From a virus: a DNA stretch of 50,885 bases. The stretch's first letter is position 1; every line of letters starts with the position of its first letter. Of this stretch, positions 2,310 to 39,000 are shown piece by piece. Location of the stretch: the IMG/VR virus record IMGVR_UViG_3300009528_000004, one strand, 5' to 3'. The notes beneath the pieces were generated by a model that was not told the origin of the DNA, ran no database searches, and was given only the letters and a program-made list of their open reading frames with translations. A program made the translations under genes and the position numbers.

Positions 2310-2452
2310 AGAAAATCCTACTTTTTATCTCTGTTCTGGCTATAATTACCGTTCCGAGCGAGGCAACGGCAATCCTGTGGGTCCTCTTCACGTCAATTTG
2401 GACCTGCTTTTTCCTACTTCGGGCGCTGAGAGAGGGAAAGGAGAGCAGATGA
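2306..2452 (+). CDS. Small hydrophobic protein (48 aa)
   Basis: ATGA overlap with the loader stop. Two hydrophobic segments. Below the ORF-track size cutoff. Confidence 0.5.
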   Translation: MKKILLFISVLAIITVPSEATAILWVLFTSIWTCFFLLRALREGKESR

Positions 2453-2930: not shown

Positions 2931-3714
2931 GAAACCGACAGGAATTGACTTATTCGCTGGTTGTGGAGGATTCTCGTTAGGCATACGAGGAGCTGGGTTT
3001 AAGGTTCTGGTAGCAGTTGAAAACGATAAGGGGGCAGCGCAGACGTATAGGGCTAATCAGAAAGGAACAGTTGTCCTCGAGGAAGATATCCGAAAGTTGA
3101 CTGCAAGAAAATTACTGGAAATAGCCAAGATCAAGAAGGGAGAGCTGACTTTGCTATTCGGTGGTCCTCCGTGTCAAGGCTTCAGTGTGTTGAGTACAAA
3201 TCGAAGTCTTGATAATCCTAACTCAAAACTAATGAATGAATTTGTGCGGATGGTAAAAGGTGTCAAACCAGAAGTATTTTATATCGAGAACGTACCCGGG
3301 TTATTCGCATTTAAGGATTTCTTTATTCTACTAATGGAATGTCTTGAGAATTGTAGCTATGTAACTCGTTGTCTTATGATGGATGCGGTCAGTTATGGTG
3401 TGCCACAATATAGAAAAAGGATCTTTATTCAGGGAGCCAGGAAGGACTTAGGTATATTACCGAGTTTTCCTCCACCGACTCATTTTGGCCCAGAGCAATT
3501 AAAAGTAAAAGATGATCAGATGTTTCAGCCAGCAATAGTAGCTGTAAAATGCTTTGCTAAGAATGGATTCCCAAAAGAAGAAGTCAAGGATCTTTATTGG
3601 AATACTAAACTACATATTCAGATGAACCGTAAGACAGCCTTGAGGGTATGGGAGTGTGCTATAGGGGAGTTAATTGGAGAAGGATTAAAGGCTAGTTTGG
3701 AGGCTAACCGATGA
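2920..3714 (+). CDS. DNA (cytosine-5) methyltransferase, short form (motifs I-VIII only)
   Basis: Motif I 'DLFAGCGGFSLG', motif IV 'GGPPCQGFS', motif VI 'ENVPG', motif VIII 'QYRKRIFIQG'. I see no motif X (GNAV-like) in the remaining 90 aa. Confidence 0.8.
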   Translation: MKDKKPTGIDLFAGCGGFSLGIRGAGFKVLVAVENDKGAAQTYRANQKGTVVLEEDIRKLTARKLLEIAKIKKGELTLLFGGPPCQGFSVLSTNRSLDNPNSKLMNEFVRMVKGVKPEVFYIENVPGLFAFKDFFILLMECLENCSYVTRCLMMDAVSYGVPQYRKRIFIQGARKDLGILPSFPPPTHFGPEQLKVKDDQMFQPAIVAVKCFAKNGFPKEEVKDLYWNTKLHIQMNRKTALRVWECAIGELIGEGLKASLEANR

Positions 3715-6893: not shown

Positions 6894-6967
6894 AAAGGGA
6901 GCGCCCGCAAGTCCGCCGCCAAGCAGTCTTGTTTTATGGGATGTTCTCCCTGGGCCGCTCCCCTTTC
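6894..6967. other. GC-rich imperfect inverted repeat (AAAGGGAGCG ... CGCTCCCCTTT) enclosing about 50 nt
   Basis: Arms at 6894..6903 and 6956..6967. A local GC-rich island in an otherwise AT-leaning genome, just upstream of the HNH gene. Confidence 0.4.
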
Positions 6968-6997
6968 TATTATAACTATTTTCCGGGCAGGTGCAAG

Positions 6998-7390
6998 ATG
7001 AGCGTAGCAGCGACAAAATCTAAGTGGCTAAAAGATATAAATACATTTGCTAAACAGAGACGAAGATATAACTGGAAAGTAAAACGTCAGAAGGATCGGC
7101 GGGCGCAAGAAGAATACTTTGAGGAGCATCCTTACTGTCAGGTCTGCTTAGCTGAGGGGAGAGGAAGGAGACCGGCTGATGAGGTTCACGAGATTCTCTA
7201 TCGCTCCCAGGGGGGTAAGTGCATACCGAAGAATGAGATCTCAACCTGCAGGCCTGATCATGACAGAATGCACTTCTTGAAGGGCCCATTTTTACATAGA
7301 GATGACCTATTTGAGATAAAGAGAAAGGAGGAAAGCTTTGAAGCCAATAGAGTGGAGAAAGATGGAAGAGGCGATGGCCGATATGTCTAG
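6998..7390 (+). CDS. HNH endonuclease
   Basis: 'CQVCLAEG...ADEVHEILYRSQGG...NEISTCRPDHDRMH'. Start taken at ATG 6998, because the track start 6929 lies in non-coding-looking sequence. Confidence 0.8.
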   Translation: MSVAATKSKWLKDINTFAKQRRRYNWKVKRQKDRRAQEEYFEEHPYCQVCLAEGRGRRPADEVHEILYRSQGGKCIPKNEISTCRPDHDRMHFLKGPFLHRDDLFEIKRKEESFEANRVEKDGRGDGRYV

Positions 7391-7529
7391 GAGCTTGTGG
7401 AAACAGTATAAGGAATATAAGGACAGGGGCTTCAGCAGAAGGCAGGCATTTGAGTTGACCAAGATGTTCCTTACAACCATTCTCCAGAAGGTCTTACTCG
7501 CTGGCGTTTTAGGACATAAAGATGAGTAA
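7338..7529 (+). CDS. Hypothetical protein
   Basis: ORF overlapping the HNH 3' end. The start is uncertain (TTG 7338 or ATG 7362). Confidence 0.4.
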   Translation: MKPIEWRKMEEAMADMSRSLWKQYKEYKDRGFSRRQAFELTKMFLTTILQKVLLAGVLGHKDE

Positions 7530-7722
7530 GGATAGTTGGGAGACTTTTACCTGCAGGATGCCCAGAAAAGCATACGTTTTGTTAGAAGATGAGCTAGAGC
7601 GAATTCGTAACTTGGCTGAGATCGATCCAGAGGATAAATTTTCTGATGAGGTTAGAGATGGTTTAGCAATGGAATTTATCGTAGCGCTTAGTGCTGCGAC
7701 TCCTGATGAGTCGGTGGTATAA
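7522..7722 (+). CDS. Hypothetical acidic protein (66 aa)
   Basis: ORF coupled to its upstream neighbour. No family recognised. Confidence 0.5.
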   Translation: MSKDSWETFTCRMPRKAYVLLEDELERIRNLAEIDPEDKFSDEVRDGLAMEFIVALSAATPDESVV

Positions 7723-7723
7723 A

Positions 7724-7852
7724 ATGAAGATTATTCTTATTTTAAGATTTTTCGTATGGGATTTTCCAAGATCTATCATAATGAAATGGATTGAAATTTG
7801 TGAGTGGGAAAAAGAAGTAACGAAACTTATGAAGCACATAAGGAGACATTAG
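7724..7852 (+). CDS. Small protein (42 aa), hydrophobic N-terminus
   Basis: ATG 1 nt after the upstream stop. Ends in '...RRH' with TAG overlapping the next GTG start. Confidence 0.4.
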   Translation: MKIILILRFFVWDFPRSIIMKWIEICEWEKEVTKLMKHIRRH

Positions 7853-7974
7853 TGCATATAGTACCCGGAATAACCATACTGGAGATAATCGGCTTAGTAT
7901 GCGGAGTAGTCGTTATCCTGATTCCCGCTGCTGTAGTCGCTATAATGCACATACTAGACGCTATTATTGAGTAA
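7852..7974 (+). CDS. Small transmembrane protein (40 aa)
   Basis: GTG start within 'AAGGAGACATTAGTG'. One long hydrophobic helix, 'ILEIIGLVCGVVVILIPAAVVAIM'. Confidence 0.45.
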   Translation: MHIVPGITILEIIGLVCGVVVILIPAAVVAIMHILDAIIE

Positions 7975-7987
7975 AGGGGAGAGATAA

Positions 7988-8173
7988 TTGCCTAAAAAGC
8001 GAGCTGTAGGAAAACGTGAAAAGATACGTAGAAGGAATAGACAGGAGTATGCTAGGATAAATAACTTACATTTCGAGCAACGACAGGAAAGGGAAGTAGG
8101 AGATGTATTTAATGATGATCTAACTTTACCACTAGCAGTAACAATGGCTTTACTTACAAGAAGGAGACATTAG
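7988..8173 (+). CDS. Hypothetical basic protein (61 aa)
   Basis: TTG start after 'aggggag'. Ends in '...RRRH' with the same TAGTG junction as 7850..7854. Confidence 0.45.
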   Translation: MPKKRAVGKREKIRRRNRQEYARINNLHFEQRQEREVGDVFNDDLTLPLAVTMALLTRRRH

Positions 8174-9474
8174 TGGAAATTAAGATGATGAAACTGTCGG
8201 ATATAAAACCTGCCCTGTATAATCCTAGAAAAAACTTAAAACCAGACGATCCTGAATATAAAAAATTAAAACGCAGTATGGAAGAGTTTGATTGCGTGGA
8301 GCCCCTTATTTGGAATAAGAGAAGCCGACAATTGGTGGGCGGCCACCAGCGGCTAAAAATACTCAAGGAAAAGGGGGTCAAGGAGTTCGAGGTGTCCGTG
8401 GTTGACTTGGACGAAAAAGGGGAAAGGGCTTTGAATGTAGCCCTCAATAAGATACAGGGTGACTGGGATTTTACTAAGCTAGCAGATTTAATGGTTGAGT
8501 TGGATGACGGGGAATTCGACCTAGAGCTAACAGGATTTGACCTTTCTGAGAGGGAAGAAATCGCTAACTGGGTTCCTGATGATGAGGAAATAATCCATAA
8601 AAAGCTGATTGACCAATTTATAGTGCCTCCCTTTAGTGTGCTAGATACTAGGCAGGGCTATTGGCAGGACAGAAAGAGGATGTGGAAAGACTTGATTGAG
8701 GATAGAGGCGAGAGCAGAAAAGAGGTATTGAGTGAACTTACTCCCCTTCGTCGATATAATCCTTCCCTTCATAATTTAGGTACAGCATCTATATTAGACC
8801 CAGTGCTATCTGAGGTGGTTCTGAGATGGTTTAATATGGAAAAGGGTACTGCTTTTGATCCCTTTGCAGGAGACACAGTGTTTGGTTTTGTGAGTGGCTA
8901 TTTGGGTTATAAATTCAAGGGGATTGAGCTAAGGAAGGAGCAGTGTGAGATAAATCAGGCCCGATGTGATGCCTATAAATTACCCGTAGAATATTTCTGT
9001 GATGACGGTCAAAAGGTATTAGATTACATTAAGCCAAAATCCCAAGATATGCTCTTCAGTTGCCCGCCGTTTTATGACCTTGAGGTATATTCTGACCTGC
9101 CCAATGATGCGAGTAATCAGGATACCTATAAGGACTTCCTAGTAATAATTGAGACGGCGCTTGGCAACTCTATTAAGGGCTTGAAAGATAACAGATTTGC
9201 AGTGATTGTATGCCAGGACATAAGGGACAAAAAGGGATTTTATAGGGGGTTCCCAAATCATATTAGGGACATTTTTGAGAAGAAAGGTATCAAGCTCTAT
9301 AATTGGATAATCTTAATAAATAGTATAGGCAGTGGGGCAGTAAGGGCTGCCAACTATATGCGAAACAGAAAGGTGGTATCGGTGCACCAAGATATTCTAG
9401 TCTTTTATAAGGGGAATCCCAGGGCAATAAAAAATGAGCTTAATACAGACAAGGCAATTTGTACTGACGGGTGA
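8173..9474 (+). CDS. ParB/sulfiredoxin-like N-terminal domain fused to an amino (N6-A/N4-C) DNA methyltransferase
   Basis: 'IKPALYNPRK...LVGGHQRLKIL' is ParB-like. Motif I 'FDPFAGDTVFG' and motif IV 'CPPFY' mark the MTase half. Confidence 0.8.
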   Translation: MEIKMMKLSDIKPALYNPRKNLKPDDPEYKKLKRSMEEFDCVEPLIWNKRSRQLVGGHQRLKILKEKGVKEFEVSVVDLDEKGERALNVALNKIQGDWDFTKLADLMVELDDGEFDLELTGFDLSEREEIANWVPDDEEIIHKKLIDQFIVPPFSVLDTRQGYWQDRKRMWKDLIEDRGESRKEVLSELTPLRRYNPSLHNLGTASILDPVLSEVVLRWFNMEKGTAFDPFAGDTVFGFVSGYLGYKFKGIELRKEQCEINQARCDAYKLPVEYFCDDGQKVLDYIKPKSQDMLFSCPPFYDLEVYSDLPNDASNQDTYKDFLVIIETALGNSIKGLKDNRFAVIVCQDIRDKKGFYRGFPNHIRDIFEKKGIKLYNWIILINSIGSGAVRAANYMRNRKVVSVHQDILVFYKGNPRAIKNELNTDKAICTDG

Positions 9475-9730
9475 TGTCAGCGTCAATAAGAGGGTATGGA
9501 ATAGCTTTTTAGAGGCAATACACAAGTCGGGAGCGACTATATTTGGCACGATCAAGCATGAATTCTATCCCCAGGGGATGACTGGTATTGTGGTTATCGG
9601 TGAGAGCCATGTGGCAATACATACCTGGCCTGAGCTAGGCAAGGCGTGGGTGGAGTTTGCGACCTGTGGGGACATTAAGCAGGCAGAGGTGTTTGAGAGA
9701 GAGCTTAGAAAACTAATAGAAAAGGGTTGA
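9434..9730 (+). CDS. speD: Pyruvoyl-dependent S-adenosylmethionine decarboxylase proenzyme-like protein (class 1, SpeD/SpeH type)
   Basis: 98 aa, colinear with Bacillus-type SpeD: 'KSGATI', 'FYPQGMTGIVVIGESHVAIHTWPE' (the E-S cleavage site) and 'TCGD'. Overlaps the upstream MTase by 41 nt. Confidence 0.75.
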   Translation: MSLIQTRQFVLTGDVSVNKRVWNSFLEAIHKSGATIFGTIKHEFYPQGMTGIVVIGESHVAIHTWPELGKAWVEFATCGDIKQAEVFERELRKLIEKG

Positions 9731-9790
9731 TAAAGCAATGAATATTGATGCAGGAACGCCTGGAGTACGGACAGGCAGATAAAGGTAAAA

Positions 9791-10564
9791 ATGGTAATGA
9801 TATATGAACCAAGAGGTAGGGCAAGGGAATATTCTCCCCTGGCCCTGAATATTTACAACAAGTGTGATCATAATTGCCGGTATTGTTATGTGCCGTTACT
9901 CCGAAGAGGAAGGAGGAATGGGCTATACGATGTCCGGCCCCGGCAATATATTTTGGAAATCTTGAGACGGGAGGCAAGAAGACATTCCTTCGGCAGCCAG
10001 GTTCTTTTATGTTTCAGTGGGGATCCTTATTGTATAGCCGATGAAAAATACAGGACTACCCGGGAGGTATTAAAGATCCTTCTGGAAAACAGTATCACCG
10101 TGGCAATCCTGACCAAAGGCGGGAAGAGATGTCTCAGAGATATTGATTTATTCAGGAAGTTCAAGGCTATCAAGGTCGGGGCAACATTAACATTCATTGA
10201 GGAAAAGGATAGTCTTTATTGGGAGAGGAAGGCCAGTCTCCCAGAGGAAAGGTTCAAGACGCTAGAAAGGCTAAAGGAAGAAGGCATTAAGACGTGGGTA
10301 AGTCTTGAGCCGGTTATAGATCCGGAGCAGACATTTAGGATAATAGACAGGACATATAAGTTCATTGATCAGTATAAAGTGGGAAAGCTGAATCACTATC
10401 CGAGCGAAATAGACTGGAAGGATTTCGGGACCCGAGTAATAGATAAACTGAACCACTATGGAAAGGAATTCTATATCAAGAGAGATCTAGCTCAGTATAT
10501 TTCACCTAGTGAGATGATGAAATCGCAGAGGGATATGGACTATTTTGCTCTCAGGGGAAAGTAA
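9791..10564 (+). CDS. Radical SAM enzyme, SplB/COG1533-like
   Basis: 'CDHNCRYCY' CxxxCxxC cluster near the N-terminus. 'FSGDPY', 'ILTKGG' and 'SLEPVIDP' blocks match the DNA-repair-photolyase-like layout. Confidence 0.75.
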   Translation: MVMIYEPRGRAREYSPLALNIYNKCDHNCRYCYVPLLRRGRRNGLYDVRPRQYILEILRREARRHSFGSQVLLCFSGDPYCIADEKYRTTREVLKILLENSITVAILTKGGKRCLRDIDLFRKFKAIKVGATLTFIEEKDSLYWERKASLPEERFKTLERLKEEGIKTWVSLEPVIDPEQTFRIIDRTYKFIDQYKVGKLNHYPSEIDWKDFGTRVIDKLNHYGKEFYIKRDLAQYISPSEMMKSQRDMDYFALRGK

Positions 10565-21150: not shown

Positions 21151-21672
21151 GTGAATTTCAATAACAGAGTTGACATCCAAAGAAAGTATAAAATCCCGGA
21201 TGGCATGGGAGGGTTTATCGATAAGTGGGCTAACCTAGAGAGATTAAACATAAGCAGCCTTGCAGGAACTTTCGTAGAGCATGAGATCATCACCGGAGGA
21301 AAAAGCGAGGCTACTGCTAAGGTGGGTAAAGTCGGTGAGGGCTACCTTGAGATCTACGGGAAGAGCGAAACGAACTTTGAGCTTGAGGAAGAGATTACTG
21401 GTACAACCTCTGAGGCTACTGCTGATATTGACAATATTATTAGTCTGGCGAATACCGCCTGCAGGTTGCAGCCCTATTCCGGAAGGGAGCTTTTTACGGC
21501 AGGCAAGGAGACAGTATTTGCCAGTCACCGACTATTTATGTCAGTTCCCCCGATCCCGATTACTGAAAAAGACAGAGCGAAATTCGGGACCAGGAAATTT
21601 GGTATTGAATTGATCAAAAATTGGGATGAGGCTGATAGATTTTATAGATTAGACGTACTCGAAATTGAATGA
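21151..21672 (+). CDS. Head-closure protein (SPP1 gp16 / HK97 gp9-like) with inserted repeat domain
   Basis: 'RVDIQRKYKIPDGMGGFIDKW' and 'CRLQPYSGRELF' flank an insertion of about 65 aa. Confidence 0.7.
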   Translation: MNFNNRVDIQRKYKIPDGMGGFIDKWANLERLNISSLAGTFVEHEIITGGKSEATAKVGKVGEGYLEIYGKSETNFELEEEITGTTSEATADIDNIISLANTACRLQPYSGRELFTAGKETVFASHRLFMSVPPIPITEKDRAKFGTRKFGIELIKNWDEADRFYRLDVLEIE

Positions 21673-21839
21673 TATTCCTTAAATTGAAAAAGGATTGGCA
21701 TAATTATTGGCGAGGGAGCGTAACCGAAGTAGATGACAAAGAAGCAGATCTGCTAGTCCAAAGGAAAATTGCAGTCTATTCTTCCCCGCAAGATTACATG
21801 ACTAAAAGCGACTTGGATTTTGCACTGAAAAGAAGGTGA
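21669..21839 (+). CDS. Hypothetical protein (56 aa)
   Basis: ATGA coupling. Below the ORF-track cutoff. Confidence 0.45.
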   Translation: MIFLKLKKDWHNYWRGSVTEVDDKEADLLVQRKIAVYSSPQDYMTKSDLDFALKRR

Positions 21840-21843: not shown

Positions 21844-22008
21844 ATGCAGATTTTCGGACTGATAGTAATGGTAATAGGATCAGCAGGAATTGTATCCTCA
21901 GTAATTATGGAGATCAAGACCAGAGAACCAGTCTATGCTCTCATGATGAAGATTTTTCCCTTGATATTTTCCATAGGAGCGATCTTTTTCTTCATAATAG
22001 GAAAATAA
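21844..22008 (+). CDS. Small two-TM membrane protein (54 aa)
   Basis: 'IFGLIVMVIGSAGIVSSVIM' and 'IFPLIFSIGAIFFFII'. Tightly packed between neighbouring genes. Confidence 0.5.
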   Translation: MQIFGLIVMVIGSAGIVSSVIMEIKTREPVYALMMKIFPLIFSIGAIFFFIIGK

Positions 22009-22009: not shown

Positions 22010-22360
22010 ATGGATGTTAAGTGGTATGGCAAGAAACTCAAGGAGGAGATGCGGGCTAAGGCCGTCAAAAATATGACCGATGCCTGTTTATTCTTGGAAG
22101 CAGACATTAAGAAGAGCTTAACAGGAAAAAGCCCCTCAGCCCCGGGTGAGCCTCCAGGAAAAAAATCAGGAACGCTGGGAAGGTCGGTCACGCATGAGGT
22201 AGAAAAAACATCTCATGGTGTGGTAGGAAGAGTAGGAACAAATATTACTTATGCAGTACCCTTAGAGTTTGGGACTTCCAAGATGGCAGCTCGTCCTTTT
22301 ATGCGTCCCGGGCTGGAAAGAAATAAAAGCAAGATAGCAAAAATCATAGCGAGGAAATAA
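22010..22360 (+). CDS. Tail-completion protein, HK97 gp10 family
   Basis: 'GRVGTNITYAVPLEFGTSKMAARPFMRP'. Confidence 0.8.
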   Translation: MDVKWYGKKLKEEMRAKAVKNMTDACLFLEADIKKSLTGKSPSAPGEPPGKKSGTLGRSVTHEVEKTSHGVVGRVGTNITYAVPLEFGTSKMAARPFMRPGLERNKSKIAKIIARK

Positions 22361-24031
22361 ATGGAAAAAGTATCGATTCTTATCCCCACACGCCAAAGAT
22401 ATAAGAAGTTGACAAAGTGTCTTGAATCACTCTTTGAGAATACCAAATATCCCGATTGGGAAGTTATAGTGATTTTGGATAGGGATGACGTTGATTCTTT
22501 AATGTTAGTACATGAATTTGAGATGGCCCATACGAGAGAGATAAAAAAGATTGTTAAATCAAAACGGGAGATGTATGTTGGCAAAATCAATGAGGGCTAT
22601 CACAAAACAGATTCTTCCCTCATAGTCTTTCTAGCCGATGATGTCGAGGTTCAGAAGAATTGGCTGATTGAGGCAGTATTAACCTTCAATGAGTCGTTCC
22701 CGGATGGAATGGGGCTGGTCTCCTTCCAGGATGAGTTCGACGATAGGCTCGCTCCCCATGGGCTAATCTCTAGGAAATACGTTGAGGAATTCTTAAACGG
22801 GAACATCTTCTATCCCGGGTACGTTCATTATTGGTGTGATACGGAGTTAACTGTCAGGAGCAAAAAATGGAATCGGTTTGTCCATTCTCCTAAGTCAATA
22901 ACTATTCACAGATCGAGGCCAGAGATAGATAGGCATGGAAAGGATGACGACCATATTCGCAAGGAAGCAAGAACAACTCTGAAGCAAGGAGAAGAGCTGT
23001 TGATTTTTCGACAGTGCTGGGGTTTTCCTGACAAGATGCCGAGAATGAAGAACTTTAAGTTGCCGAGTAAAGTTGATATTCGCTTTATGCCAACGGAGGA
23101 GCTTGAGTTTTATGTTGGATTCGGGGTGGACACTAGAAAAAAGCTTGATTGGAAAGTTGACAGGGAAACAGCGCTTTTCTTCCTGAAGCTTTTTCCGGGA
23201 TACTTCAAACCGATAATTGAGAAAAAGAAGACCGATTCTATGGTGCTTCTTAAGCTCAAGATACTAGCCATCGTCTGTGTTTACAATGAGATGGATATAT
23301 TACCCTACCTTATTGATCATTTAGCTTCTCAGGACATAGATATCTTTGTCTTCGATAACTACTCTACCGATGGAACATGGGAATACCTAAGGGAAAGAGG
23401 GATTGATTGTGAGAAGCTTGATACGCATGAACAACTCAATTTGGTGCTGATTATCGAAGCTAAGATGAAGAAGTGGGATCAAGTAAAGCCTGACTGGTGT
23501 ATCTATCAGGATGCCGATGAATTTCCATTAACTTTAGAATTTCCAACCCTGAGAGAATTGATAGAGGATAGGGACAGGAGAGGATTCGATGCCATCAATC
23601 AACTAAGGGTTACTTTCTTACCAACAGGTGAGGAAGATTTCGGGAAAAAAGACCCTCGCAAGATTTTCCGTTACTATGATAAGGATTACTGGTTCTCCTC
23701 CACTAATGCCTGCTCGGATAGGATATTCAAGTATAAAAGGAAAGTTAGCTTAAGTGGGGGTGCGCATTATATTTTGAATAGTGTGCGCAGGAGCAGGGAA
23801 GGACTTAATAATGTAATTTTCCATTATCCTTATAGGGAATTCGCAGAGAGGCAATTGGAAGAAAGAAAATCTCGATCCTCAAAAGCTGAAATCAAGGGAG
23901 GTTTGCATAGGCATTATTTTGAATCTTACCCAAAAGGCTTCGTTTGGAAGAAGGAAGGAAAAGGAGATTTGATGAATCCTAAGGACCCTTTGCATAAATT
24001 TTATGCGGCTGAGGCAGTTAGAGTAGTTTGA
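22361..24031 (+). CDS. Two-domain family-2-type glycosyltransferase (556 aa)
   Basis: N-terminal half: 'VSILIPTRQRY...WEVIVILDRDD' and 'FLADDVE'. C-terminal half: 'ILAIVCVYNEMDILPYLIDHL...VFDNYSTDGT' and 'QDADEF'. Confidence 0.8.
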   Translation: MEKVSILIPTRQRYKKLTKCLESLFENTKYPDWEVIVILDRDDVDSLMLVHEFEMAHTREIKKIVKSKREMYVGKINEGYHKTDSSLIVFLADDVEVQKNWLIEAVLTFNESFPDGMGLVSFQDEFDDRLAPHGLISRKYVEEFLNGNIFYPGYVHYWCDTELTVRSKKWNRFVHSPKSITIHRSRPEIDRHGKDDDHIRKEARTTLKQGEELLIFRQCWGFPDKMPRMKNFKLPSKVDIRFMPTEELEFYVGFGVDTRKKLDWKVDRETALFFLKLFPGYFKPIIEKKKTDSMVLLKLKILAIVCVYNEMDILPYLIDHLASQDIDIFVFDNYSTDGTWEYLRERGIDCEKLDTHEQLNLVLIIEAKMKKWDQVKPDWCIYQDADEFPLTLEFPTLRELIEDRDRRGFDAINQLRVTFLPTGEEDFGKKDPRKIFRYYDKDYWFSSTNACSDRIFKYKRKVSLSGGAHYILNSVRRSREGLNNVIFHYPYREFAERQLEERKSRSSKAEIKGGLHRHYFESYPKGFVWKKEGKGDLMNPKDPLHKFYAAEAVRVV

Positions 24032-24040
24032 GGTAAGAGA

Positions 24041-25162
24041 ATGATCAATTTAGATGCATTAGTGGTTGATGGTAATTCTACAGGGCCGTATGGAGATATG
24101 AAGCCATTCGCATGTTTACTAGCAGGCCTTGTGATAGCATGTAATGCTCAGGTTGTGCTTGAGATTGGAAGTGGACCTTTGAACTCAGGTAGAGCTTTTT
24201 TGTACGGACTTGAAAAGACTAAGGGAATTCTTTATACTTGCGACCTTAAAAAGAAATTTGACTTTTCTCATCCGTCTCTATGTTTTGAGCGGTTAACTTC
24301 GCAGGAGCTTGCTAAGAGTTGGAATAATCAAATAGATATTCTTTTGATTGATGGGGACCATAAATACGAGCAGGTTAAGTTCGATTATAATACTTTTTTG
24401 CCCTTTGTGAAAAAAGGTGGGTTTATTGTTTTACATGATACTGTTGTTAAGGCGGGTCCTAAAAAGCTTGCTTCAGAGGTTGTTGGGGGTCAGAGGTTAG
24501 TGTTTCCGAAGAACCCGGGATTGACGGTGTTCCAAAAGCAAGAGAGTGGGGTTTTGACGGGCGAGAATCAAGTAGAACTTGAGGAAACGAAAAGAATTGT
24601 TAAAAGCATCCAAGGATGGGTTGGCGACAAGGAAGGTGCATATCTTTTCCAGAGAGCAAAGAACTGTTCAAAAGGTATAATTGTTGAAATAGGCTCTTGG
24701 AAAGGGAAATCAACTGTTTGGCTGGCAAGGGGCTCAAAAGCAGGAAACAAAACTAGGATTTATGCTATAGACCCTTTTGATGGTAGAGATTCAAAATTCA
24801 TAACAATACCCCAGCCTGATTATTCAGTTTTTGAAATTTTTAAGGATAATATAAGAAAAGCTGGATTGAATGATTTGATAACTCCTATCGTTTCCCGCTC
24901 TCAGGATGCAAGTGATAAAATTAAGGAGAGAATAGAATTTCTTTTCATAGATGGTGCCCACGGATATGAGTTCGTCAAGAAGGATTTTGAGCTATATTTC
25001 CCAAAGGTGCTGAGGGGAGGGATCATTGTATTTCATGATGCAAATGAAAGAGAAGGAGTTAAGAGAGAAGGCGTAGTAAAACTAATGAGGGAATTATCAA
25101 AAGACAAAAGGGTAGAGAAAATCGATGTCGTGGGTTCAATGGTGGCTTGGAGGAAAATTTGA
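24041..25162 (+). CDS. Tandem-domain class I SAM-dependent methyltransferase (CmcI/TylF-like halves)
   Basis: 'LEIGSGPLNSG...LLIDGDHKYEQV...GFIVLHD' is repeated as 'VEIGSWKGKST...LFIDGAHGYEFV...GIIVFHD'. Confidence 0.75.
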   Translation: MINLDALVVDGNSTGPYGDMKPFACLLAGLVIACNAQVVLEIGSGPLNSGRAFLYGLEKTKGILYTCDLKKKFDFSHPSLCFERLTSQELAKSWNNQIDILLIDGDHKYEQVKFDYNTFLPFVKKGGFIVLHDTVVKAGPKKLASEVVGGQRLVFPKNPGLTVFQKQESGVLTGENQVELEETKRIVKSIQGWVGDKEGAYLFQRAKNCSKGIIVEIGSWKGKSTVWLARGSKAGNKTRIYAIDPFDGRDSKFITIPQPDYSVFEIFKDNIRKAGLNDLITPIVSRSQDASDKIKERIEFLFIDGAHGYEFVKKDFELYFPKVLRGGIIVFHDANEREGVKREGVVKLMRELSKDKRVEKIDVVGSMVAWRKI

Positions 25163-25190: not shown

Positions 25191-25625
25191 ATGAGTATAG
25201 ATATAAACGCTTTGAAGATAGGGATCTACGATGCCTTAAATGTGCCAGCTATCACCAATCTAGTAACAGGGATTTATCACAAAAAGGCTCCCCAGGATGC
25301 ATCCTACCCCTATATCCTCTACTGGATCGTAACCGGTAGCAATAAAGACACTTTTACCGAATGGAAGGATGAAGTGCTGATTCAGATAGATGTGTATTGC
25401 CAGAATAAAGATAAAAATGAAAATGATGTATCGGGAGGCCAGCATTGTGGAGTTATATTAAAGGCGGTTACTACAGCGATGGATGAGGCTGAGATAACTG
25501 CTGAGGGATATTCGGTATTTTTCTGCCAAAGGCAAGGACCTCCTCGAGATCTATATGAGGATGATACAGATACTTATCATAATGTTTTAGAATATCGAAT
25601 CGAAATGGAAAAAAGCAAAATTTAG
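25191..25625 (+). CDS. Tail terminator/completion protein (DUF3168-like)
   Basis: 'IYHKKAPQDASYPYILYWIV...VLIQIDVY', positioned before the tube gene. Confidence 0.65.
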   Translation: MSIDINALKIGIYDALNVPAITNLVTGIYHKKAPQDASYPYILYWIVTGSNKDTFTEWKDEVLIQIDVYCQNKDKNENDVSGGQHCGVILKAVTTAMDEAEITAEGYSVFFCQRQGPPRDLYEDDTDTYHNVLEYRIEMEKSKI

Positions 25626-25689: not shown

Positions 25690-26112
25690 ATGGGCGAAAC
25701 AAAAGCAATTGCGGGATATCACGGAAAGGTTTATGTAGGAGCTGCTTCCTCACCCCTGAATGAAGTTGCAGAGATAGGGAACTGGACTGCGACTATAGCA
25801 TTGGATTTAATAGAGACTCCCAAGTTTCAGGCGGATAAAACTAGGATTGCTGGAAAGAGGGACTTCAGCGGTTCATTCGATGGATCTTGGTATCTCCAAG
25901 ATACGACAGGTCAGAAAGTCCTTCAGGATGCTCTGCTTGGTGGAACGGTGGTCTATTTGAGGCTTCAGGCAAAGGATGGTAACACTTACTCTTGTTGGGT
26001 TTTGATTTCTGGGGAAACATTAGGTGCCCCTCATGCTGGATCACAAGCCATCAGCTTTGCTTTTTCCTCTACTGGTAAGGTGGCAGTGACCGTCGCGTCC
26101 ACAAGCGCATAA
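25690..26112 (+). CDS. Major tail (tube) protein
   Basis: 140 aa with strong RBS 'aggaggtg'. Position immediately before the chaperone pair and tape measure. Confidence 0.65.
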   Translation: MGETKAIAGYHGKVYVGAASSPLNEVAEIGNWTATIALDLIETPKFQADKTRIAGKRDFSGSFDGSWYLQDTTGQKVLQDALLGGTVVYLRLQAKDGNTYSCWVLISGETLGAPHAGSQAISFAFSSTGKVAVTVASTSA

Positions 26113-33480: not shown

Positions 33481-35055
33481 ATGGCATTACAATTTGTTAC
33501 TGGAAGTAGCCACCGTGTAAGTGCTAATGGTGTTACTTCAGGCAGTGTCTTTGGTGGTGCACATACGATTATTGGTAGAGGTCAATTATCGGCATGGGCT
33601 GCTAACCGAGACATTTTTGCAGCGGCTAATGCTGCGCACAGTTATTCAGCAATCGACTTCAGTAATGGTGACCAAAAACTTCATGCAAGAACTAACACTG
33701 CTGTGGGGGAGAACGTTGTTGATTCAGCAGTTTTTACTAATAATTCTGCCCGCCATCTTTTTGCTATTCTTGTTGACGCTGCTGGACATATAAATCATTT
33801 TTATATTGACCTTGCAGACCAAGGAAACGATTCAACTTTTGCTAATGACCTTTCAGGTCTAGATTGGTTTGATATCGGACAGATACCTTGGAATGGAGAA
33901 GGAGTAAATCCGTGGCACGGTAGAATAGAGGAGGTTCGTGTCTATAATCGTGAGCTGACATTTGCTGAGATAACAATTATATATTATGCCCAAGGCGCAG
34001 ACAATATAGTAAATGGTCTTATAGGGCGTTGGTTGATGAATGAGAAGGCAGATGGACAGGTTGCAGCGGGAGCTAATGTAGTTATAGATATAAGTGGGCA
34101 GGGAAATCACGGGACACCTGCTAATAATCCAGTTTATCGGGGAGCTCCGTTGAAGTTGGTAAGACCGTTTGTAACTATGACACGAATTGCTGAAACGTAT
34201 ACAGAAACTTTGACGAGAAAGTTGGGCTTTGTTCCTTCACACATTTCCGTAGTTGAAAGTTCTTTAACTAAGAAGTTAGGCTTTGTTCCATCGTTTGTTT
34301 TAGGTCCTTATGGGTTAAGTTATACTATGCAACTAGGCTTCGTTCCTTCCCAGGTCTCTACAATTTACGGCGAAAAGATACTAAAGTTAGGGGTAGTACC
34401 TAGTCATATTTCAACTATAACTGCTACTCCCCTGATAAAGAAGCTGGGTTTCGTACCTAGACACGTTTCTACTGCGTATGGAGAGCTATTAAAAAAATTA
34501 GGTTTAGTGCCTTCTCATAGTTCTACTATTTACGGGACAGAGCTGCTCAAATTAGGTTTTGTTCCTGACTACACCTCGATTGTTTATGGACTTTTGACAA
34601 AGAAACTCGGCTTTGTTCCCATTCATATATCGCAAGTTTATAAGTATATTGTAGAGCTGAAATTCTACGACCGAGATGATAACCTAGTTAAGATAATTTC
34701 ATCGAAGACTAAGAACTTTCCGTTAGTGGATCCACCTGGATTAGATTTTCAGTGGTTCAGAGATGGGGGTTGCGGCCCGTTTAGTTTTGCTGTGTCAGAG
34801 GATTTGGGTCTTGAGTATAATTACAAATGCGAGATATATCTGTGGGAGACGAAGTGGTATACGGGTTATATAACGAAACTGCCGCAAGTGGTAGGGACTC
34901 AGATTGTTTTCAATTATGCTGGTTGGGGTTACTCCGAACAGATTGATTGGCAGACAATTAAGGAGACGTATGTGGGTACTGAGCTTTCTGCAATAGCAGA
35001 GGACATATTAGATAATTATATTATTGGCAAAACTAAAGTAAAGAAGGCTGCATAA
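33481..35055 (+). CDS. LamG-like lectin domain, then 8 short repeats, then the N-terminal part of a tail-tip (Tal-like) domain
   Basis: 'WHGRIEEVRVYNRELTFAEI' is a LamG-type signature. Eight 'LGFVPSHIS'-type repeats follow. The C-terminal 'ELKFYDRDDNLVKII...FSFAVSED...' resembles the N-terminus of siphovirus minor structural proteins. Confidence 0.65.
   Translation: MALQFVTGSSHRVSANGVTSGSVFGGAHTIIGRGQLSAWAANRDIFAAANAAHSYSAIDFSNGDQKLHARTNTAVGENVVDSAVFTNNSARHLFAILVDAAGHINHFYIDLADQGNDSTFANDLSGLDWFDIGQIPWNGEGVNPWHGRIEEVRVYNRELTFAEITIIYYAQGADNIVNGLIGRWLMNEKADGQVAAGANVVIDISGQGNHGTPANNPVYRGAPLKLVRPFVTMTRIAETYTETLTRKLGFVPSHISVVESSLTKKLGFVPSFVLGPYGLSYTMQLGFVPSQVSTIYGEKILKLGVVPSHISTITATPLIKKLGFVPRHVSTAYGELLKKLGLVPSHSSTIYGTELLKLGFVPDYTSIVYGLLTKKLGFVPIHISQVYKYIVELKFYDRDDNLVKIISSKTKNFPLVDPPGLDFQWFRDGGCGPFSFAVSEDLGLEYNYKCEIYLWETKWYTGYITKLPQVVGTQIVFNYAGWGYSEQIDWQTIKETYVGTELSAIAEDILDNYIIGKTKVKKAA
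34218..34650 (+). repeat. Eight protein-level repeats of 18-20 aa (K)LGFVP(S/R/D/I)H(I/V)S-x-(I/V)YG
   Basis: Read from the translation. The DNA copies have diverged (mostly synonymous or conservative changes), so this is not a recent duplication. Confidence 0.85.
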
Positions 35056-37193
35056 TGGCATCTAGTAAGATTATAGATACAGGCTATCCATGCGTTGAGT
35101 TAGCGTGGAATAGGAAAAAGGCGAAATCTGTCTTTAATGATTTGAAGGAGATTGCTCAAAATTATAAATGTGGAGTAGATGAGGAGCAGGAATTCTACTT
35201 CCAACCTATCTCTAATACTATTACGAAGCGTTATTGGATAGGTAAGGGTGTAAAACTCTTTGAACCTGATGAGGAAGTTGATCCGATTATCAATGAGTAT
35301 GATGTTTTAGTGGGCCAGATGACTTCCGGAGATAATTATTTGCTGACGGTTAAGGATGATGGAGAAGGTAGCTCGCAAGAAAAGTTTGGGATTCGCAGGG
35401 ATAACTTACAATTGCCTGAGTGCATCCCAGGATTCGGGAGTGATCTAGCTTCAGGTAAAACTCCCACGACAAACCCGGTCGCAGGAACGCCTGCTAACAT
35501 GACCAATGGCAATTCTGAAACAGAGTGGGATAGTGGAGAAAACCAAGAAGCGGAGGATTATATCCAGGTTGATTTGGGAGAGGAGAAAAGTTATCTCGGG
35601 AAAATAAGGGTGGATTCTATAAACTCTGCAAAGGAAAAGAATTACTCGTATGCCGATAGGTTCAAAGTCTTAATCTCTTCGACAGGAGCGTTCACAGGAG
35701 AAGAAACTGAGGTATTTGCCGCAGTGGAGGATTTCGGGACTGCTGATGTGGTAATTACTTTCGTACCGACGACAGGCAGATATATGAGAATAGAATTGAC
35801 GGCGGGGAAGGCGTATCACTGGCGGGTGAACAGATTTGAGGTTTTCGAGTGGCAGGTAGGAGACATTACCCGCTGGGCAATAGATAGGTTAAATAAGACG
35901 AAAGATCCGATTAAACGTGGAGTGCTAGAGTTAGAAGTGTGCTATGAAAAGCTCTGGCCGCAAGGGAAGATTCGGTTGACGTCCCAGGATGGAGGGTCGT
36001 ATTATGATTACCCTCATGTGGCTACGTCTGTTCACGTCGGGACTGAGAGGAAAATAGAAGTACAGCTAGAGTTGGGTGAAGTGAAAAAGAGTGTAGGAGA
36101 CCAAATCCTGGCTCAGAGAAGAATGATAAGTGAATTTGGGATTGCCGGGTTGTCCAGAGATGCTGATTTGTCTAGTGGTGCTGGACTGGGGTTGGGAGGA
36201 ATACTTCATACTCACATTGGAAAAGATTCGATTGAGACGCCTATGCTGAGAGCTGGAAGTATTTATGCAAAGCATTACCACGAACTACGCAATACTTATG
36301 TATTTTCTGACCAAGAATCGCTTGATGCTGCCAAGTCCTTTGAAATGGACTTTGAAATAGTCTCAGAAATGACCGCAATTGTCAATGTTAAATTGTCTTT
36401 TAGAATTAAAGAGTTCAGGGCTTATGCTACTACAGTACCAAGTGGTGGAGGACATACAACTCCTTCAGGTGGAGGACATACTACTCCGTCAGGGGGAGGA
36501 CATACTACTCCAAGCGGCGGAGGAGCGACAAGCGGTGCGAAAGGTTCAGCAAGTGGGGGAGGTAGCACAAGTGGCTATGAAGGGACGCCATCAGGTGGAG
36601 GGAGTACAAGCGGTGGTGGTGGAGCTACAACTCCGACAAGTTCAGTTGATTCAGGCGGATATGCAAGCGTTTGGCGAATACTTCAGGCTTATCTTTCGCA
36701 TGGTGTTGGTGTTGAGCTTCAAGAGGGATGGCTCATACAAGATTATGATACATTAAGTCTAGCTAGTCATACTCACACTCACACGGTAACCCTTAGTAAC
36801 CATACACACTCAACCCCTAACCACACGCATCCCAATCATAGACACTCAACGCCAAACCACACGCATCCTAATCACACGCATACGACACCCGCTCACACTC
36901 ATACAGTATCTAACCATCAACACACAGTATCTAGTCATACTCATACAGTAAGCAATCATACACATAGTCTTACTTTTGGAATTTATGAGGCTTCAACTTC
37001 ACCGACAATTAACGTATATGTTTCCAACGACGGAATCAACTATGGGGACTCTATTGGTGCTTATGAGGCAGACGAATTGGATTTGGTCATCACAGGAATT
37101 AGCGGAGCAGGCTGGAAGCGCATCAAGTTTACTTCTAATGTTCTAGCAAGAATTTCGGCTATTATCATGTGTAAAGTAGATATAACAGCTTAG
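35055..37193 (+). CDS. Tail fibre / receptor-binding protein with discoidin (F5/8 type C)-like domain, Gly-rich linker and HxH-repeat module
   Basis: 'NMTNGNSETEWDSGENQEAEDYIQVDLGE...RYMRIEL' is discoidin-like. 'PSGGGHTT' occurs three times. About 10 HxH motifs. C-terminal 'LTFGIYEAS...'. Confidence 0.75.
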   Translation: MASSKIIDTGYPCVELAWNRKKAKSVFNDLKEIAQNYKCGVDEEQEFYFQPISNTITKRYWIGKGVKLFEPDEEVDPIINEYDVLVGQMTSGDNYLLTVKDDGEGSSQEKFGIRRDNLQLPECIPGFGSDLASGKTPTTNPVAGTPANMTNGNSETEWDSGENQEAEDYIQVDLGEEKSYLGKIRVDSINSAKEKNYSYADRFKVLISSTGAFTGEETEVFAAVEDFGTADVVITFVPTTGRYMRIELTAGKAYHWRVNRFEVFEWQVGDITRWAIDRLNKTKDPIKRGVLELEVCYEKLWPQGKIRLTSQDGGSYYDYPHVATSVHVGTERKIEVQLELGEVKKSVGDQILAQRRMISEFGIAGLSRDADLSSGAGLGLGGILHTHIGKDSIETPMLRAGSIYAKHYHELRNTYVFSDQESLDAAKSFEMDFEIVSEMTAIVNVKLSFRIKEFRAYATTVPSGGGHTTPSGGGHTTPSGGGHTTPSGGGATSGAKGSASGGGSTSGYEGTPSGGGSTSGGGGATTPTSSVDSGGYASVWRILQAYLSHGVGVELQEGWLIQDYDTLSLASHTHTHTVTLSNHTHSTPNHTHPNHRHSTPNHTHPNHTHTTPAHTHTVSNHQHTVSSHTHTVSNHTHSLTFGIYEASTSPTINVYVSNDGINYGDSIGAYEADELDLVITGISGAGWKRIKFTSNVLARISAIIMCKVDITA
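36438..36533 (+). repeat. Tandem 24-bp repeats (4 copies) encoding PSGGG(H/A)TT
   Basis: Copies at 36438, 36462, 36486 and 36510. Confidence 0.9.
36765..36968 (+). repeat. His-x-His repeat module (about 10 HxH motifs with a 6-7 residue period)
   Basis: 'SHTHTHTVTLSNHTHSTPNHTHPNHRHSTPNHTHPNHTHTTPAHTHTVSNHQHTVSSHTHTVSNHTHS'. Confidence 0.9.
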
Positions 37194-37210: not shown

Positions 37211-37768
37211 TTAAAATTTATACCCCACTTGCAGTGAAATTCCTCCTTTGTTTGCACAGCTAATTCCAACTGAATTTATTTTGCCCTCAAGAAAGATATT
37301 TTCTCCTAGATTAAAACCAATTACAAAATGCAAACCCAAGCCCGAATCTTTTCGGATATCACGGCGATCTGTGTAAAGATAAGTCACTTCCTGAATCAGG
37401 TGGTGATACTCCAAACCCATGCCCAGATAGATCTCTCTAGTCAAAGTGGGAAAATAGAGAAAACTGAGAGTCATAACGATATCTCTCCAATCTCTATGTA
37501 AATAATTTGTAGTCCAGGCAGAAGATATGTATTCCAATCCCCCAGCAATACCAAACGAACTATTTTCAAGATAAAACAGATAGTCACTACCCACAATGAA
37601 ACCAGAATATCCAAAGAAGTTGTCCCTGTGTGACAATATACCGAATTTTATCCTGAATTCAGGGTCAGACACATTATTCTTTGCTTCCTGAGCAAAACCA
37701 CACAGGTTCATTGATAGAAGTAGCCCTATTACCAAAACTGTAGCCATGCTTATTCTTGTTTTTTTCAT
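37211..37768 (-). CDS. Outer-membrane beta-barrel protein (small OmpX/Lom-like moron)
   Basis: Signal peptide 'MKKTRISMATVLVIGLLLSMNLCGFAQ', alternating amphipathic strands and a C-terminal 'VGYKF'. Opposite strand to all neighbours. 'aaggagg' RBS. Confidence 0.75.
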   Translation of the reverse strand: MKKTRISMATVLVIGLLLSMNLCGFAQEAKNNVSDPEFRIKFGILSHRDNFFGYSGFIVGSDYLFYLENSSFGIAGGLEYISSAWTTNYLHRDWRDIVMTLSFLYFPTLTREIYLGMGLEYHHLIQEVTYLYTDRRDIRKDSGLGLHFVIGFNLGENIFLEGKINSVGISCANKGGISLQVGYKF

Positions 37769-38022: not shown

Positions 38023-39000
38023 ATGAATAGACCGCATTTGCCGCCTTACAAGGTGGAGAAGTTAAAGGGATTGAGGTTTTTAAGGGAGCTGAGTAATTGG
38101 GCTTTCAGGCACTGGAAGATTAACGAGCTTTGGGAGCACACCCAGGGAGTAGAGGTAAAAGTAGCAGTTCTTGATACAGGTCGTCCAGACCACCAGGATA
38201 TAGAGGTTTTCAAAAGTGTAGATTTTACAGGGGAAGGTGAGATGGACAAGAACGGACACGCCACTTGGGTTTGTGGATGTATAGCCGCTACAAAAGGATT
38301 CCTGGGGCTGGCTCCGAAGTGTAAGCTCTACACGGCCAAAATCTTAGATGATGATGGAATGGGAGCTTGGTTGTGGATGAAAAAAGGCTTAAAGTGGGCT
38401 TTGGCAGAGGGTTGTCAAGTAGTGAATATTTCAGCCGGAGGTGACTACGCCGGCAATGAGATCCAGCCGATTCTGAAGAAGATGGCTGACTTGGGAGTTA
38501 TGATAATCTGTGCTGCAGGAAATAGTGGTACTTTGTTGATTTTTCCGGCTGTTGATCCTAACACGATTGCGATTGGCGCTGTAGATGAAGAGTGGCAAAA
38601 GGCAGCATTCTCTAGTTTTGGCCCGAGACTGATTGCGATGGCCCCGGGAGAAAATCTTCTTGGATGCTGGCTGGACAATGGATATGTCAAAGCTACTGGT
38701 ACCAGTATGGCCTGCCCTGAAGTATCCGGTGTTTTGGTGTTAGAGAGAGAGCTGAGAAGTATGAATTTGAAGGAAGTAGTTGGCAAATTTGCTATTACTT
38801 CTAGGGATATGGAAGGAGAGGGATGGGATCCGCGAACTGGTTGGGGAATCATTGACCCGTTTAAATTTCTCGGCTTTGAAGAGTCCAAAAAGAAGATTAC
38901 TTGGAAGTGGCTTATCGCTCTCCTCATGTTTTTCATATTCTATTTGTTTGGAGTACCGGGTGCAGCGATTAAAAGATTGTCAAAGGAGGGTAAAGTATGA
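38023..39000 (+). CDS. Subtilisin-family (S8) serine protease with C-terminal transmembrane anchor, no signal peptide
   Basis: Asp 'VAVLDTG', His 'NGHATWVCG', Asn 'VVNISAGG', Ser 'GTSMACP'. C-terminal 'WLIALLMFFIFYLFGVPGAAI'. Confidence 0.85.
   Translation: MNRPHLPPYKVEKLKGLRFLRELSNWAFRHWKINELWEHTQGVEVKVAVLDTGRPDHQDIEVFKSVDFTGEGEMDKNGHATWVCGCIAATKGFLGLAPKCKLYTAKILDDDGMGAWLWMKKGLKWALAEGCQVVNISAGGDYAGNEIQPILKKMADLGVMIICAAGNSGTLLIFPAVDPNTIAIGAVDEEWQKAAFSSFGPRLIAMAPGENLLGCWLDNGYVKATGTSMACPEVSGVLVLERELRSMNLKEVVGKFAITSRDMEGEGWDPRTGWGIIDPFKFLGFEESKKKITWKWLIALLMFFIFYLFGVPGAAIKRLSKEGKV

Follow-up and report, generated by a model that had tools for sequence, protein, structure and literature searches.

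The window analyzed here is a stretch of viral DNA of 50,885 nucleotides (IMG/VR virus record IMGVR_UViG_3300009528_000004). Two adjacent genes, coding for a glycosyltransferase (GT) protein and a methyltransferase (MT) protein, lie in it between the genes of a gp10-like tail-completion protein and a gp17-like tail terminator, and they are considered here as a putative glycan-assembly system. We will use the term "cassette" for the genes inserted in this slot and the names GTA, LNK, GTB, MT1, and MT2 for their modules (Table 1). A preliminary description of the stretch had placed both open reading frames (ORFs) on the plus strand, quoted motif strings from their translations, and stated that the two genes interrupt the usual order of gp10 to tail terminator. 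Both ORFs and all of the quoted strings are present, and the identity of the neighbors is confirmed by matches to Pfam and PHROGs. The junction sequence also confirms that the TAA stop of gp10 directly abuts the ATG of the GT gene. The gaps between the GT and MT genes and between the MT and gp17 genes are 9 nt and 28 nt, respectively, with a Shine-Dalgarno-like purine run at each.

Table 1. Positions of the cassette, its modules, and the other features discussed, in the window and in related contigs (L numbers).
Contig	Feature	Position	Strand	Remarks
Window	GT protein, 556 aa	22361..24031	+
Window	GTA, GT-A/GT2-family module, aa 1-228	22361..23044	+	PF00535; conserved
Window	LNK, aa 229-292	23045..23236	+	small strand-and-helix domain, ~60 aa, no Pfam match
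Window	GTB, GT-A module of Glyco_tranf_2_4 type, aa 296-556	23246..24031	+	PF13704; swappable second module
Window	MT protein, 373 aa	24041..25162	+
Window	MT1, Methyltransf_24/CmcI-like, aa 1-180	24041..24580	+
Window	MT2, Methyltransf_24/TylF-like, aa 181-373	24581..25162	+
Window	Head-tail adaptor, 280 aa	20308..21150		shared insert at aa 137-215
Window	Head completion protein (HCP), 173 aa	21151..21672	+	upstream anchor of the block; Pfam Phage_HCP E 2.4e-10; syntenic in all relatives; shared insert at aa 31-105
Window	Conserved 56-aa ORF	21669..21839	+	overlaps HCP stop by 4 nt; 57-69% identical homologues at the same position in L009 and L011
Window	Hydrophobic 54-aa ORF just 5' of gp10	21844..22008	+	two predicted transmembrane segments; maximum Kyte-Doolittle 19-residue window 2.42
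Window	gp10-like/Neck1 tail-completion protein	22010..22360	+	phrog_5 E 6.6e-21; Pfam HK97-gp10_like weak
Window	Tail terminator (gp17-like)	25191..25625	+	downstream anchor of the slot; Tail_completion_gp17 52.1 bits; phrog_176, phrog_78
Window	Tail tube protein	25690..26112	+	phrog_1407 E 3.6e-12
Window	S/T/G/P-rich linker of the 712-aa tail fibre (35055..37193)	36438..36660	+	candidate acceptor, mucin-like
Window	185-aa moron-like protein	37211..37768	-	signal peptide, C-terminal GYKF, OMP_b-brl match below Pfam cut-off
Window	Subtilase (Peptidase_S8)	38023..39000	+
Window	Four early-region genes (products in the text)	2920..3714, 4361..5692, 8173..9474, 9791..10564
L009	Small hydrophobic ORF	9783..9986
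L011	Small hydrophobic ORF	9430..9648
L025 (IMGVR_UViG_3300033153_010658)	N6/N4 DNA methyltransferase, 444 aa	570..1904		separates the cassette end from gp10
L013/L003 (Ga0309839_1002276)	Split tail tube gene	6945..8073
L002	Pribosyltran and Asn_synthase-like genes	1634..3611		just 5' of the head protease gene
L040 (Logan SRR14872668_2078)	GT/methyltransferase gene cluster with P0011	155..11775

The two halves of the GT protein both pass their Pfam cut-offs, GTA with Glycos_transf_2 (PF00535; 91.5 bits against a cut-off of 23.3, best stretch aa 5-123) and GTB with Glyco_tranf_2_4 (PF13704; 34.6 bits against 27.5, aa 309-391). This bears out the earlier description of the protein as two GT-A/GT2-like halves, which had overlooked the LNK domain at aa 229-292 between them. 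No similarity is detectable between GTA and GTB. All close relatives share the GTA residues D40, D42, D43, D93-D94 (DXD), H156, D160, and E162, and the same positions are kept in 29-37 of 37 sequences of the wider family, save D43 (19 of 37). GTA has the nucleotide-binding aspartate, the DXD metal/diphosphate motif, and a downstream acidic base at D160/E162. For GTB, D337 (STDGT) is kept in 46 and D386 (DADEF) in 50 of the 51 wider-family sequences.

The AlphaFold model of the GT protein has a mean pLDDT of 75.5, with values of mostly 81-95 in GTA, 74-90 in LNK, and ~67-89 over aa 300-440 of GTB, and lower values beyond. A GT-A fold for GTA is reflected in Foldseek matches that include SpsA, TarP, WrtF, and the pp-GalNAc-Ts. 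The best whole-chain matches are enzymes with two GT-A domains, namely K4 chondroitin polymerase (K4CP), PmHS2, and LARGE1, with single-domain GT-A enzymes next. The viral structure library, too, yields many matches to multidomain GT-A proteins, their sources being uncultured phages and giant viruses.

The LNK domain has the consensus LPxKVxLxFxPTEELxFYxGFGIDTRKKLDWxVDRExAxFLLxxFP and follows every GTA. It is present in two copies in the related proteins P0004 and P0006, and it is N-terminal in the second ORF of the L016 cassette. Among 277 collected proteins, the LNK profile finds only P0001-P0010 and P0135, and it finds LNK nowhere else in the window.

The MT protein matches Pfam Methyltransf_24 (PF13578) with 138.9 bits in two stretches, and RMNT_CmcI and TylF are also above their cut-offs. 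Both halves have an ExG motif (S-adenosylmethionine motif I), an aspartate after strand 2, a DGxH motif, a further aspartate, and an HD motif. The corresponding residues E41, G43, D68, D104-G105-x-H107, D115, and H132-D133 are invariant among MT1 modules, and E216, G218, D244, D304-G305-x-H307, D315, and H332-D333 of MT2 are invariant in 60 sequences. The structure model covers the MT1 half alone (pLDDT 78.9, pTM 0.78), and its top fold match in the PDB is MeT1, the MMP 1-O-methyltransferase of Mycobacterium hassiacum (6g80, E 2.5e-9). The best PDB sequence match of MT2 is also MeT1 (6g7d, E 1.9e-8), and MT2 is ~50% identical to many cellular MT24 (Methyltransf_24) proteins of ~236 residues that carry the source labels "MMP 1-O-methyltransferase" or YrrM. 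Based on this neighbor and on the fusion or adjacency of the MT modules to GTs, the substrate would be a sugar hydroxyl.

The double CmcI/TylF-like domain of the earlier description is borne out by Pfam, but its proposal of a tandem duplication is not. MT1 and MT2 are 41% identical over a core of only 56 residues, and they occur separately in relatives, MT1 being fused to GTs in P0003, P0004, P0006, and P0014 and MT2 in P0002. A recent tandem duplication is ruled out by these two observations, and the MT protein is, by its sequence, a fusion of two distinct Methyltransf_24 modules. Degenerate catalytic motifs had been named beforehand as a possible ground for doubt, and structure-based classification had been suggested. 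All four catalytic domains retain the family-invariant residues, the GT model falls with the two-GT-A enzymes, and the MT1 model has the MeT1 fold.

Neither protein has a convincing transmembrane segment. The hydrophobicity maxima (1.47 in the GT protein and 2.02 in the MT protein) sit in the region leading into a Rossmann-type strand. GtrA and flippase genes are likewise absent among the window genes.

The window is a complete genome of ~50,762 bp, circularly assembled or terminally redundant, because its first 123 nt (1-123) are identical to its last 123 nt (50763-50885). By its gene content it is a temperate siphovirus. The annotated genes include those for lysogeny (tyrosine integrase, S24/helix-turn-helix repressor, Gp3-like recombination directionality factor), replication (Rep-O, DnaC-like loader), packaging and head formation (TerL, portal, MuF, XkdF-type protease, major capsid protein (MCP)), the tail (tape measure protein, Dit, fibres), and lysis (Amidase_2 endolysin).

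The cassette is embedded in the late operon of this genome. Promoter-like matches between 17 and 32 kb number 29 against a shuffled expectation of 25.3, and terminator-like matches in the same region number 9 against 12.4, none of either kind lying 5' of the GT gene. The promoter scans are crude and give weak evidence. In these scans the signals do not exceed the shuffled expectation, which agrees with the earlier statement that both genes lie on the strand of their neighbors with no promoter or terminator of their own. The GT and MT genes have ordinary GC content, GC content at third codon positions, and codon usage, the latter being nearest to the genome mean. Transcription must cross the cassette because the gp17, tube, and tape measure protein genes lie beyond it. 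The claim that the cassette is expressed late together with the virion genes is supported by this operon embedding; on the other hand, the phage is temperate, and expression in the lysogen is also possible from the sequence.

One alternative is that the soluble GT and MT proteins remodel the host envelope, modifying a nascent surface polysaccharide (O-antigen, capsule, or a teichoic-acid-like polymer) on the cytoplasmic side. The changed serotype would then lead to superinfection exclusion or keep the progeny off cell debris. In favor of this, the phage is temperate, having an integrase, an S24 repressor, and a recombination directionality factor, and enzymes of the GT2, LicD, and TagD-like kinds, as well as capping by O-methylation, are classically used on envelope glycans. 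The PHROGs matches of the GT halves fall under "moron / GtrB-like", and the weak NCBIfam neighbors are GTs of exopolysaccharide and O-antigen synthesis, no NCBIfam family being above cut-off for the GT or the MT protein. However, the GtrB-like match amounts to just 18.7 bits over 47 residues, and no GtrA, flippase, or transmembrane segment accompanies it. Moreover, the cassette lies in the middle of the late head-tail operon, abutting its neighbors, without its own promoter and ~17 kb away from the integrase, and a modification made minutes before lysis would achieve little. We consider envelope remodeling unlikely, and the relatives of the phage speak further against it.

Relatives have been collected by context look-ups and by scans of IMG/VR and metagenomes, giving about a dozen distinct phage contigs that were annotated against a local module library and Pfam. 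Close homologues of the GT protein number only 14 among 5.8 billion clustered proteins. The cassette is present in all collected contigs of this tube family that cover the slot (~12: the window, L009, L011, L013-L018, L025, L032, and L035). Every cassette seen from its start consists of GTA and LNK followed by a swappable GT, MT24, MT11 (Methyltransf_11), LicD, or TagD-like cytidylyltransferase module. GTA (with LNK) is the constant part, with 53-73% identity in nine related loci, while GTB is present in L009 and L018 and is replaced by other modules in L011 and L013-L017.

The gene order of the window is gp10, GTA-LNK-GTB, MT1-MT2, gp17. A different GT-A domain and a Methyltransf_11 protein are found in L011 (gp10, GTA-LNK-(other GT-A), Methyltransf_11, gp17), and LicD takes the second place in L013 and L015 (gp10, GTA-LNK-LicD, gp17) and in L014, where a cytidylyltransferase gene follows (gp10, GTA-LNK-LicD, cytidylyltransferase, gp17). 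Further upstream, L012 (of the L013 phage type) and L015 each encode another LicD and a TagD-like cytidylyltransferase, and L012/L013 also have an MT24 gene there. L016 has the order gp10, GTA-LNK, LNK-GT-MT1, gp17. The cassette precedes gp10 in L009 (GTA-LNK-GTB-MT2, small GT2, gp10, gp17), L017 (GTA-LNK-GTA'-LNK-GT-MT1, gp10, gp17), and L018 (GTA-LNK-GTB-MT1, gp10, gp17). In L025, MT1 is followed by a DNA N6/N4 methyltransferase and then by gp10 and gp17, and in the short contigs L032 and L035, MT1 is the last module ahead of gp17.

As a control, more distant tube homologues (38-42% identity) have been inspected, and these have a plain HCP-gp10-gp17-tube order without the insert. The cassette is a clade-defining insertion rather than a sporadic moron, because the distant tube relatives lack it and all clade members have it. 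This fixed structural position is a further point against envelope remodeling. The ratio of nonsynonymous to synonymous substitution rates (dN/dS), taken where dS is unsaturated, is 0.13 for MT2 and 0.07-0.14 for the tube, gp17, and MCP; by these values, purifying selection acts on the cassette as it does on the structural genes.

No isolated relative has been found by megablast of the 18-28 kb region against INPHARED or by tblastn of the GT protein, and two scans of 185,579 GTDB genomes, with profiles of the GT N-domain and of the tube, have found no prophage copy. A scan of IMG/VR with the gp17 protein alone gives only matches of 25% identity. The source labels of the few clade members for which these were seen are marine sediment and subsurface metagenomes.

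Between the window and L011 (Ga0247413_1168457), the MCP, tube, and GTA are 93%, 88%, and 72% identical, respectively, and the second GT and MT modules differ. The dN values for this pair are 0.044 for MCP, 0.066 for the tube, and 0.223 for GTA-LNK. The cassette has been exchanged between lineages and is a mosaic formed by recombination, because the flanks are near-identical while GTA-LNK has diverged and the downstream modules differ. Such exchange is as expected for a locus under diversifying selection.

Hypervariable modules within conserved flanks, as in this pair, are also typical of arms-race loci, and they would fit another acceptor altogether. The soluble enzymes might act on a non-virion protein of phage or host, or else produce a methylated oligosaccharide in free form, and so serve host takeover or counter-defence late in infection. 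The cassette-specific LNK could target any partner. Against this, we know of no precedent for a non-virion or free-oligosaccharide target, and the fixed linkage to the head-tail genes is simpler with a virion substrate, making this alternative improbable.

The DNA methyltransferase in the L025 slot speaks for a third alternative, in which the GTs would glycosylate a modified base of the phage DNA before packaging, with later methylation of the sugars, as a means to evade restriction or CRISPR. Late expression would fit a pre-packaging modification, and the window itself encodes a C5-cytosine methylase and two N6/N4 methylases. To our knowledge, the LicD and cytidylyltransferase variants of the relatives have no DNA-glycan precedent, which counts against this alternative. 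Both MT halves best match sugar or small-molecule O-methyltransferases, and among the annotated window ORFs there is no TET/JBP protein, dCMP/dUMP hydroxymethylase, or other hydroxymethyl-pyrimidine route. The window ORFs without a family match are all of 136 residues or fewer, with the exception of structural-module ORFs and one ORF of 254 residues that has no Pfam match. Phages are known whose GTs attach diverse glycans to DNA (Pyle 2024, cited in PMC12619734), and this precedent is the remaining point in favor of DNA hypermodification, which we regard as very improbable.

Three further observations have been made in the related contigs. In L013/L003 the tail tube gene is split across an ORF with the first ~68 residues, a 191-aa ORF with the motif LTGMIDGEGS (LAGLIDADG-like), and an ORF with the C-terminal part ending in VTVASTSA; the split is probably due to a group I intron or a homing-endonuclease insertion. 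In L002, a close relative, Pribosyltran and Asn_synthase-like genes absent from the window are found, and these may be nucleotide or DNA-modification cargo. Lastly, P0011, the nearest non-phage homologue of GTB, is encoded in L040 in a cluster of at least 10 GT/methyltransferase genes, which includes TylF/MT24 genes and a faint MptE/Maf-like gene and adjoins a sugar ABC transporter. The phage modules may stem from this cluster, which looks like a cellular locus for a methylated glycan.

Two candidate acceptors in the virion had been put forward in the preliminary description, the S/T/G/P-rich linker of the tail fibre and the S/T-rich C-terminus of the tube protein. Both are real, but the tube tail is not specific to the phages with the cassette. 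This tail reads VAVTVASTSA, and its S137 is invariant in seven cassette-bearing relatives (ASTSA/TSAT tails). The tubes of relatives without the cassette end in TYS or TYSAT, and the S/T-rich tail has been ruled out as cassette-specific evidence for the acceptor since it is present in these relatives too. The C-terminus of the MCP is not S/T-rich. In aa 462-520 and 572-640, the fibre contains five PSGGG repeats, the first three being PSGGGHTT, and after them 11 overlapping HxH motifs (SHTHTHTV...NHTHS). In these motifs the fibre resembles T4-type fibre tips with their metal-binding HxH repeats. The L043 contig codes for a related fibre in which an S/T/G linker of similar kind likewise precedes HxH repeats, an arrangement that carries no weight either way.

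Based on these observations, we propose with moderate confidence that the cassette is a late-expressed, cytoplasmic glycan-assembly system predicted to O-glycosylate at least one structural protein of the virion. GTA, aided by LNK, would put the first sugar onto the acceptor, and the second GT-A domain would add a further sugar. The glycan would finally receive a methyl cap, with the two metal-dependent Methyltransf_24 domains acting on its sugar hydroxyls as O-methyltransferases. Sister phages have these later steps exchanged for those of other GTs, a Methyltransf_11 enzyme, or a LicD phosphotransferase with a TagD-like cytidylyltransferase, and each lineage would therefore display a different glycan. 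Glycosylation would take place before or during virion assembly. What the sequences show is the identity of the domains, their intact catalytic residues, the operon embedding, the conservation in the clade, and the swapping of modules; the acceptor and sugars, the order in which the domains act, and the benefit to the phage are inferred.

A virion protein is the favored target for four reasons: the gene layout leaves no choice but transcription together with the tail genes, all of the clade keeps the cassette within the head-tail block, the enzymes are soluble and lack export machinery, and there is precedent for such a system. The virion glycan-decoration system of the earlier description is thus retained with respect to its domains, its intact residues, its operon embedding, and its presence throughout the clade, but not with respect to the specificity of the tube tail.

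Several observations weigh against this proposal. The cassette has candidate acceptors only, and the tube endings of the cassette-less relatives have been described above. The L025 DNA methyltransferase indicates that cargo not acting on virion proteins is tolerated in the slot, so the position alone is no proof of a virion-protein target. The phage is temperate, and the promoter scans have the limits already given. The LicD and TagD-like modules of the relatives are typical of the decoration of cell-envelope polymers, and P0011 lies in a cellular-looking GT/MT cluster beside a sugar ABC transporter, which also counts in favor of envelope remodeling. In addition, the enzymes are not related in sequence to those of the mycobacteriophages.

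A broader form of the proposal may be offered tentatively, although we hold it to be doubtful. The slot would be a clade-wide glycan-diversity locus in which LNK acts as a docking domain, either for acceptor recognition or for chaining the enzymes as in assembly-line synthases, while the recombining modules are selected in an arms race that does not involve antibodies. Different caps, methyl groups or phospho-alcohols, would then distinguish the glycans of closely related virions. The selecting agent would be one that recognizes the surface of the virion or freshly synthesized structural proteins, for example a host defence sensor, a protease, decoy binding, or the partner in adsorption.

The block around the cassette shows additional features. 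Small hydrophobic ORFs of 54-72 residues with one or two predicted transmembrane segments are found between the HCP gene and gp10 or the cassette in some members. In L009 and L011, the ORFs in the slot of the 54-aa ORF are of unrelated sequence and have a C-terminal transmembrane segment. In L014 and L015 the place is taken by a small ORF whose paired CxxC motifs look like a zinc ribbon by eye, and L016 lacks a small ORF there. An inserted segment of ~70-75 residues is common to the head-tail adaptor and the HCP, with 42% identity and "...ITG.TS.ATA.V" repeats. It shows weak matches to PHROGs of tail-fibre and virion proteins and may be a surface decoration domain duplicated between the two connector proteins.

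In the early region, the products of the four genes of Table 1 are three DNA methylases, one of the C5-cytosine and two of the N6/N4 type (one of the latter with a fused ParB-N domain), and a PA0069/Rv2578c-like radical SAM protein. A bacterial host is suggested by the Amidase_2 endolysin. A diderm host had been claimed from an outer-membrane beta-barrel protein encoded by the phage. The candidate for this is the 185-aa minus-strand protein, which is flanked by the fibre gene and the subtilase gene; its OMP_b-brl match is below the Pfam cut-off. This protein is the sole hint of a diderm host, and makes one weakly plausible.

If the proposal of virion glycosylation is true, self-glycosylation would be a wider phage strategy that has evolved without a link to vertebrate immunity. 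Mycobacteriophage virion glycosylation, by comparison, is described in the literature as blunting antibody recognition. If the target is instead the host envelope or DNA, the fixed position in the late operon would itself need explaining. The cassette also provides a handful of soluble enzymes, LNK as a candidate domain for targeting or docking, and module swaps in nature from which different glycan caps are predicted.

Several known systems can be compared with the cassette. The Gtr modules (GtrA/GtrB/Gtr*) share with it a temperate phage and a GT2-family domain. On the other hand, the cassette has no GtrA and no transmembrane helices in its GT, does not lie near the integrase/attachment region, and is embedded in the late operon. 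Thermobifida phage P1312 has a Methyltransf_24 protein (23% identical to MT2, E 2e-12) beside a "glycosyl/glycerophosphate transferase". This pair is on the same strand and just downstream of the tail genes but not within the head-tail joining block; it is uncharacterized, and the host is actinobacterial.

The two-GT-A polymerases, namely the K4 chondroitin polymerase of E. coli (2z86), the heparosan synthase of P. multocida (8vh7), and LARGE1, match the GT model over the whole chain with E-values of 1e-14 to 1e-10, but with identities of only ~10-13%, TM-scores of ~0.3, and a domain arrangement that is not superimposable. K4CP-type enzymes with two GT-A domains polymerize repeating disaccharides. 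By this analogy the two GT domains could be read as an obligate co-polymerase, but that reading has been down-weighted, the second module being interchangeable with non-GT modules. MeT1 has the ExG, DGxH, and HD motifs common to both MT halves and methylates a sugar hydroxyl on oligomannosides (PMC9883506). It differs in being a stand-alone cellular enzyme with ~17-30% identity. The A064R protein of chlorovirus PBCV-1, with two GT domains and then a sugar O-methyltransferase, elaborates and caps the N-glycan of the capsid (PMC7826918), and this GT-GT-MT order recurs within a single chain in the relative P0002. The comparison with A064R is one of architecture. A064R comes from a eukaryotic giant virus, and the window has two MT domains on a separate protein.

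The closest counterpart in kind comes from the mycobacteriophages, in which virion glycosylation (Corndog gp35-38, Che8 gp110) was reportedly described by Freeman et al. in 2023. PMC11600133 is among the sources that cite these findings (Freeman et al. 2023). In Corndog (Cluster O), gp35 is a TylF/Methyltransf_24 MT and is followed by the GT-like gp36-38, the cassette lying between the portal (gp34) and protease (gp39) genes. As in the window, a phage-encoded MT of this family and several GT-A-type GTs are found inside the structural operon. According to PMC12363180, the Corndog enzymes decorate the capsid and the tail tube, and Corndog gp38 and Che8 (Cluster F) gp110 are essential for capsid glycosylation. 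The glycans are reported, in PMC12619734, at the C-termini of the capsid and tube subunits. In the literature searched, experimental virion glycosylation by phage-encoded enzymes was found only for mycobacteriophages.

At the same time, the two systems differ in several respects. BLASTP of Corndog gp35-38 against the window modules gives no match, the best E-value (0.003) being to the MT module of a relative, and the Pfam family of the MT is the only common ground. Because this pairwise similarity is lacking, the two systems would be independent inventions or independent assemblies from cellular parts. The Corndog slot lies between portal and protease, whereas the cassette described here lies among the head-tail joining genes and consists of two fused polyproteins with LNK, the modules being swapped between sisters. 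The Corndog host is actinobacterial, whereas that of the window is not, as far as can be told. The kind of system proposed here is already known from mycobacteriophages, chloroviruses, and mimiviruses. What is new is the non-homologous enzyme set, the fusion architecture with LNK, the fixed head-tail slot, the swapping of modules between sister phages, and the occurrence in a clade of uncultured temperate siphoviruses.

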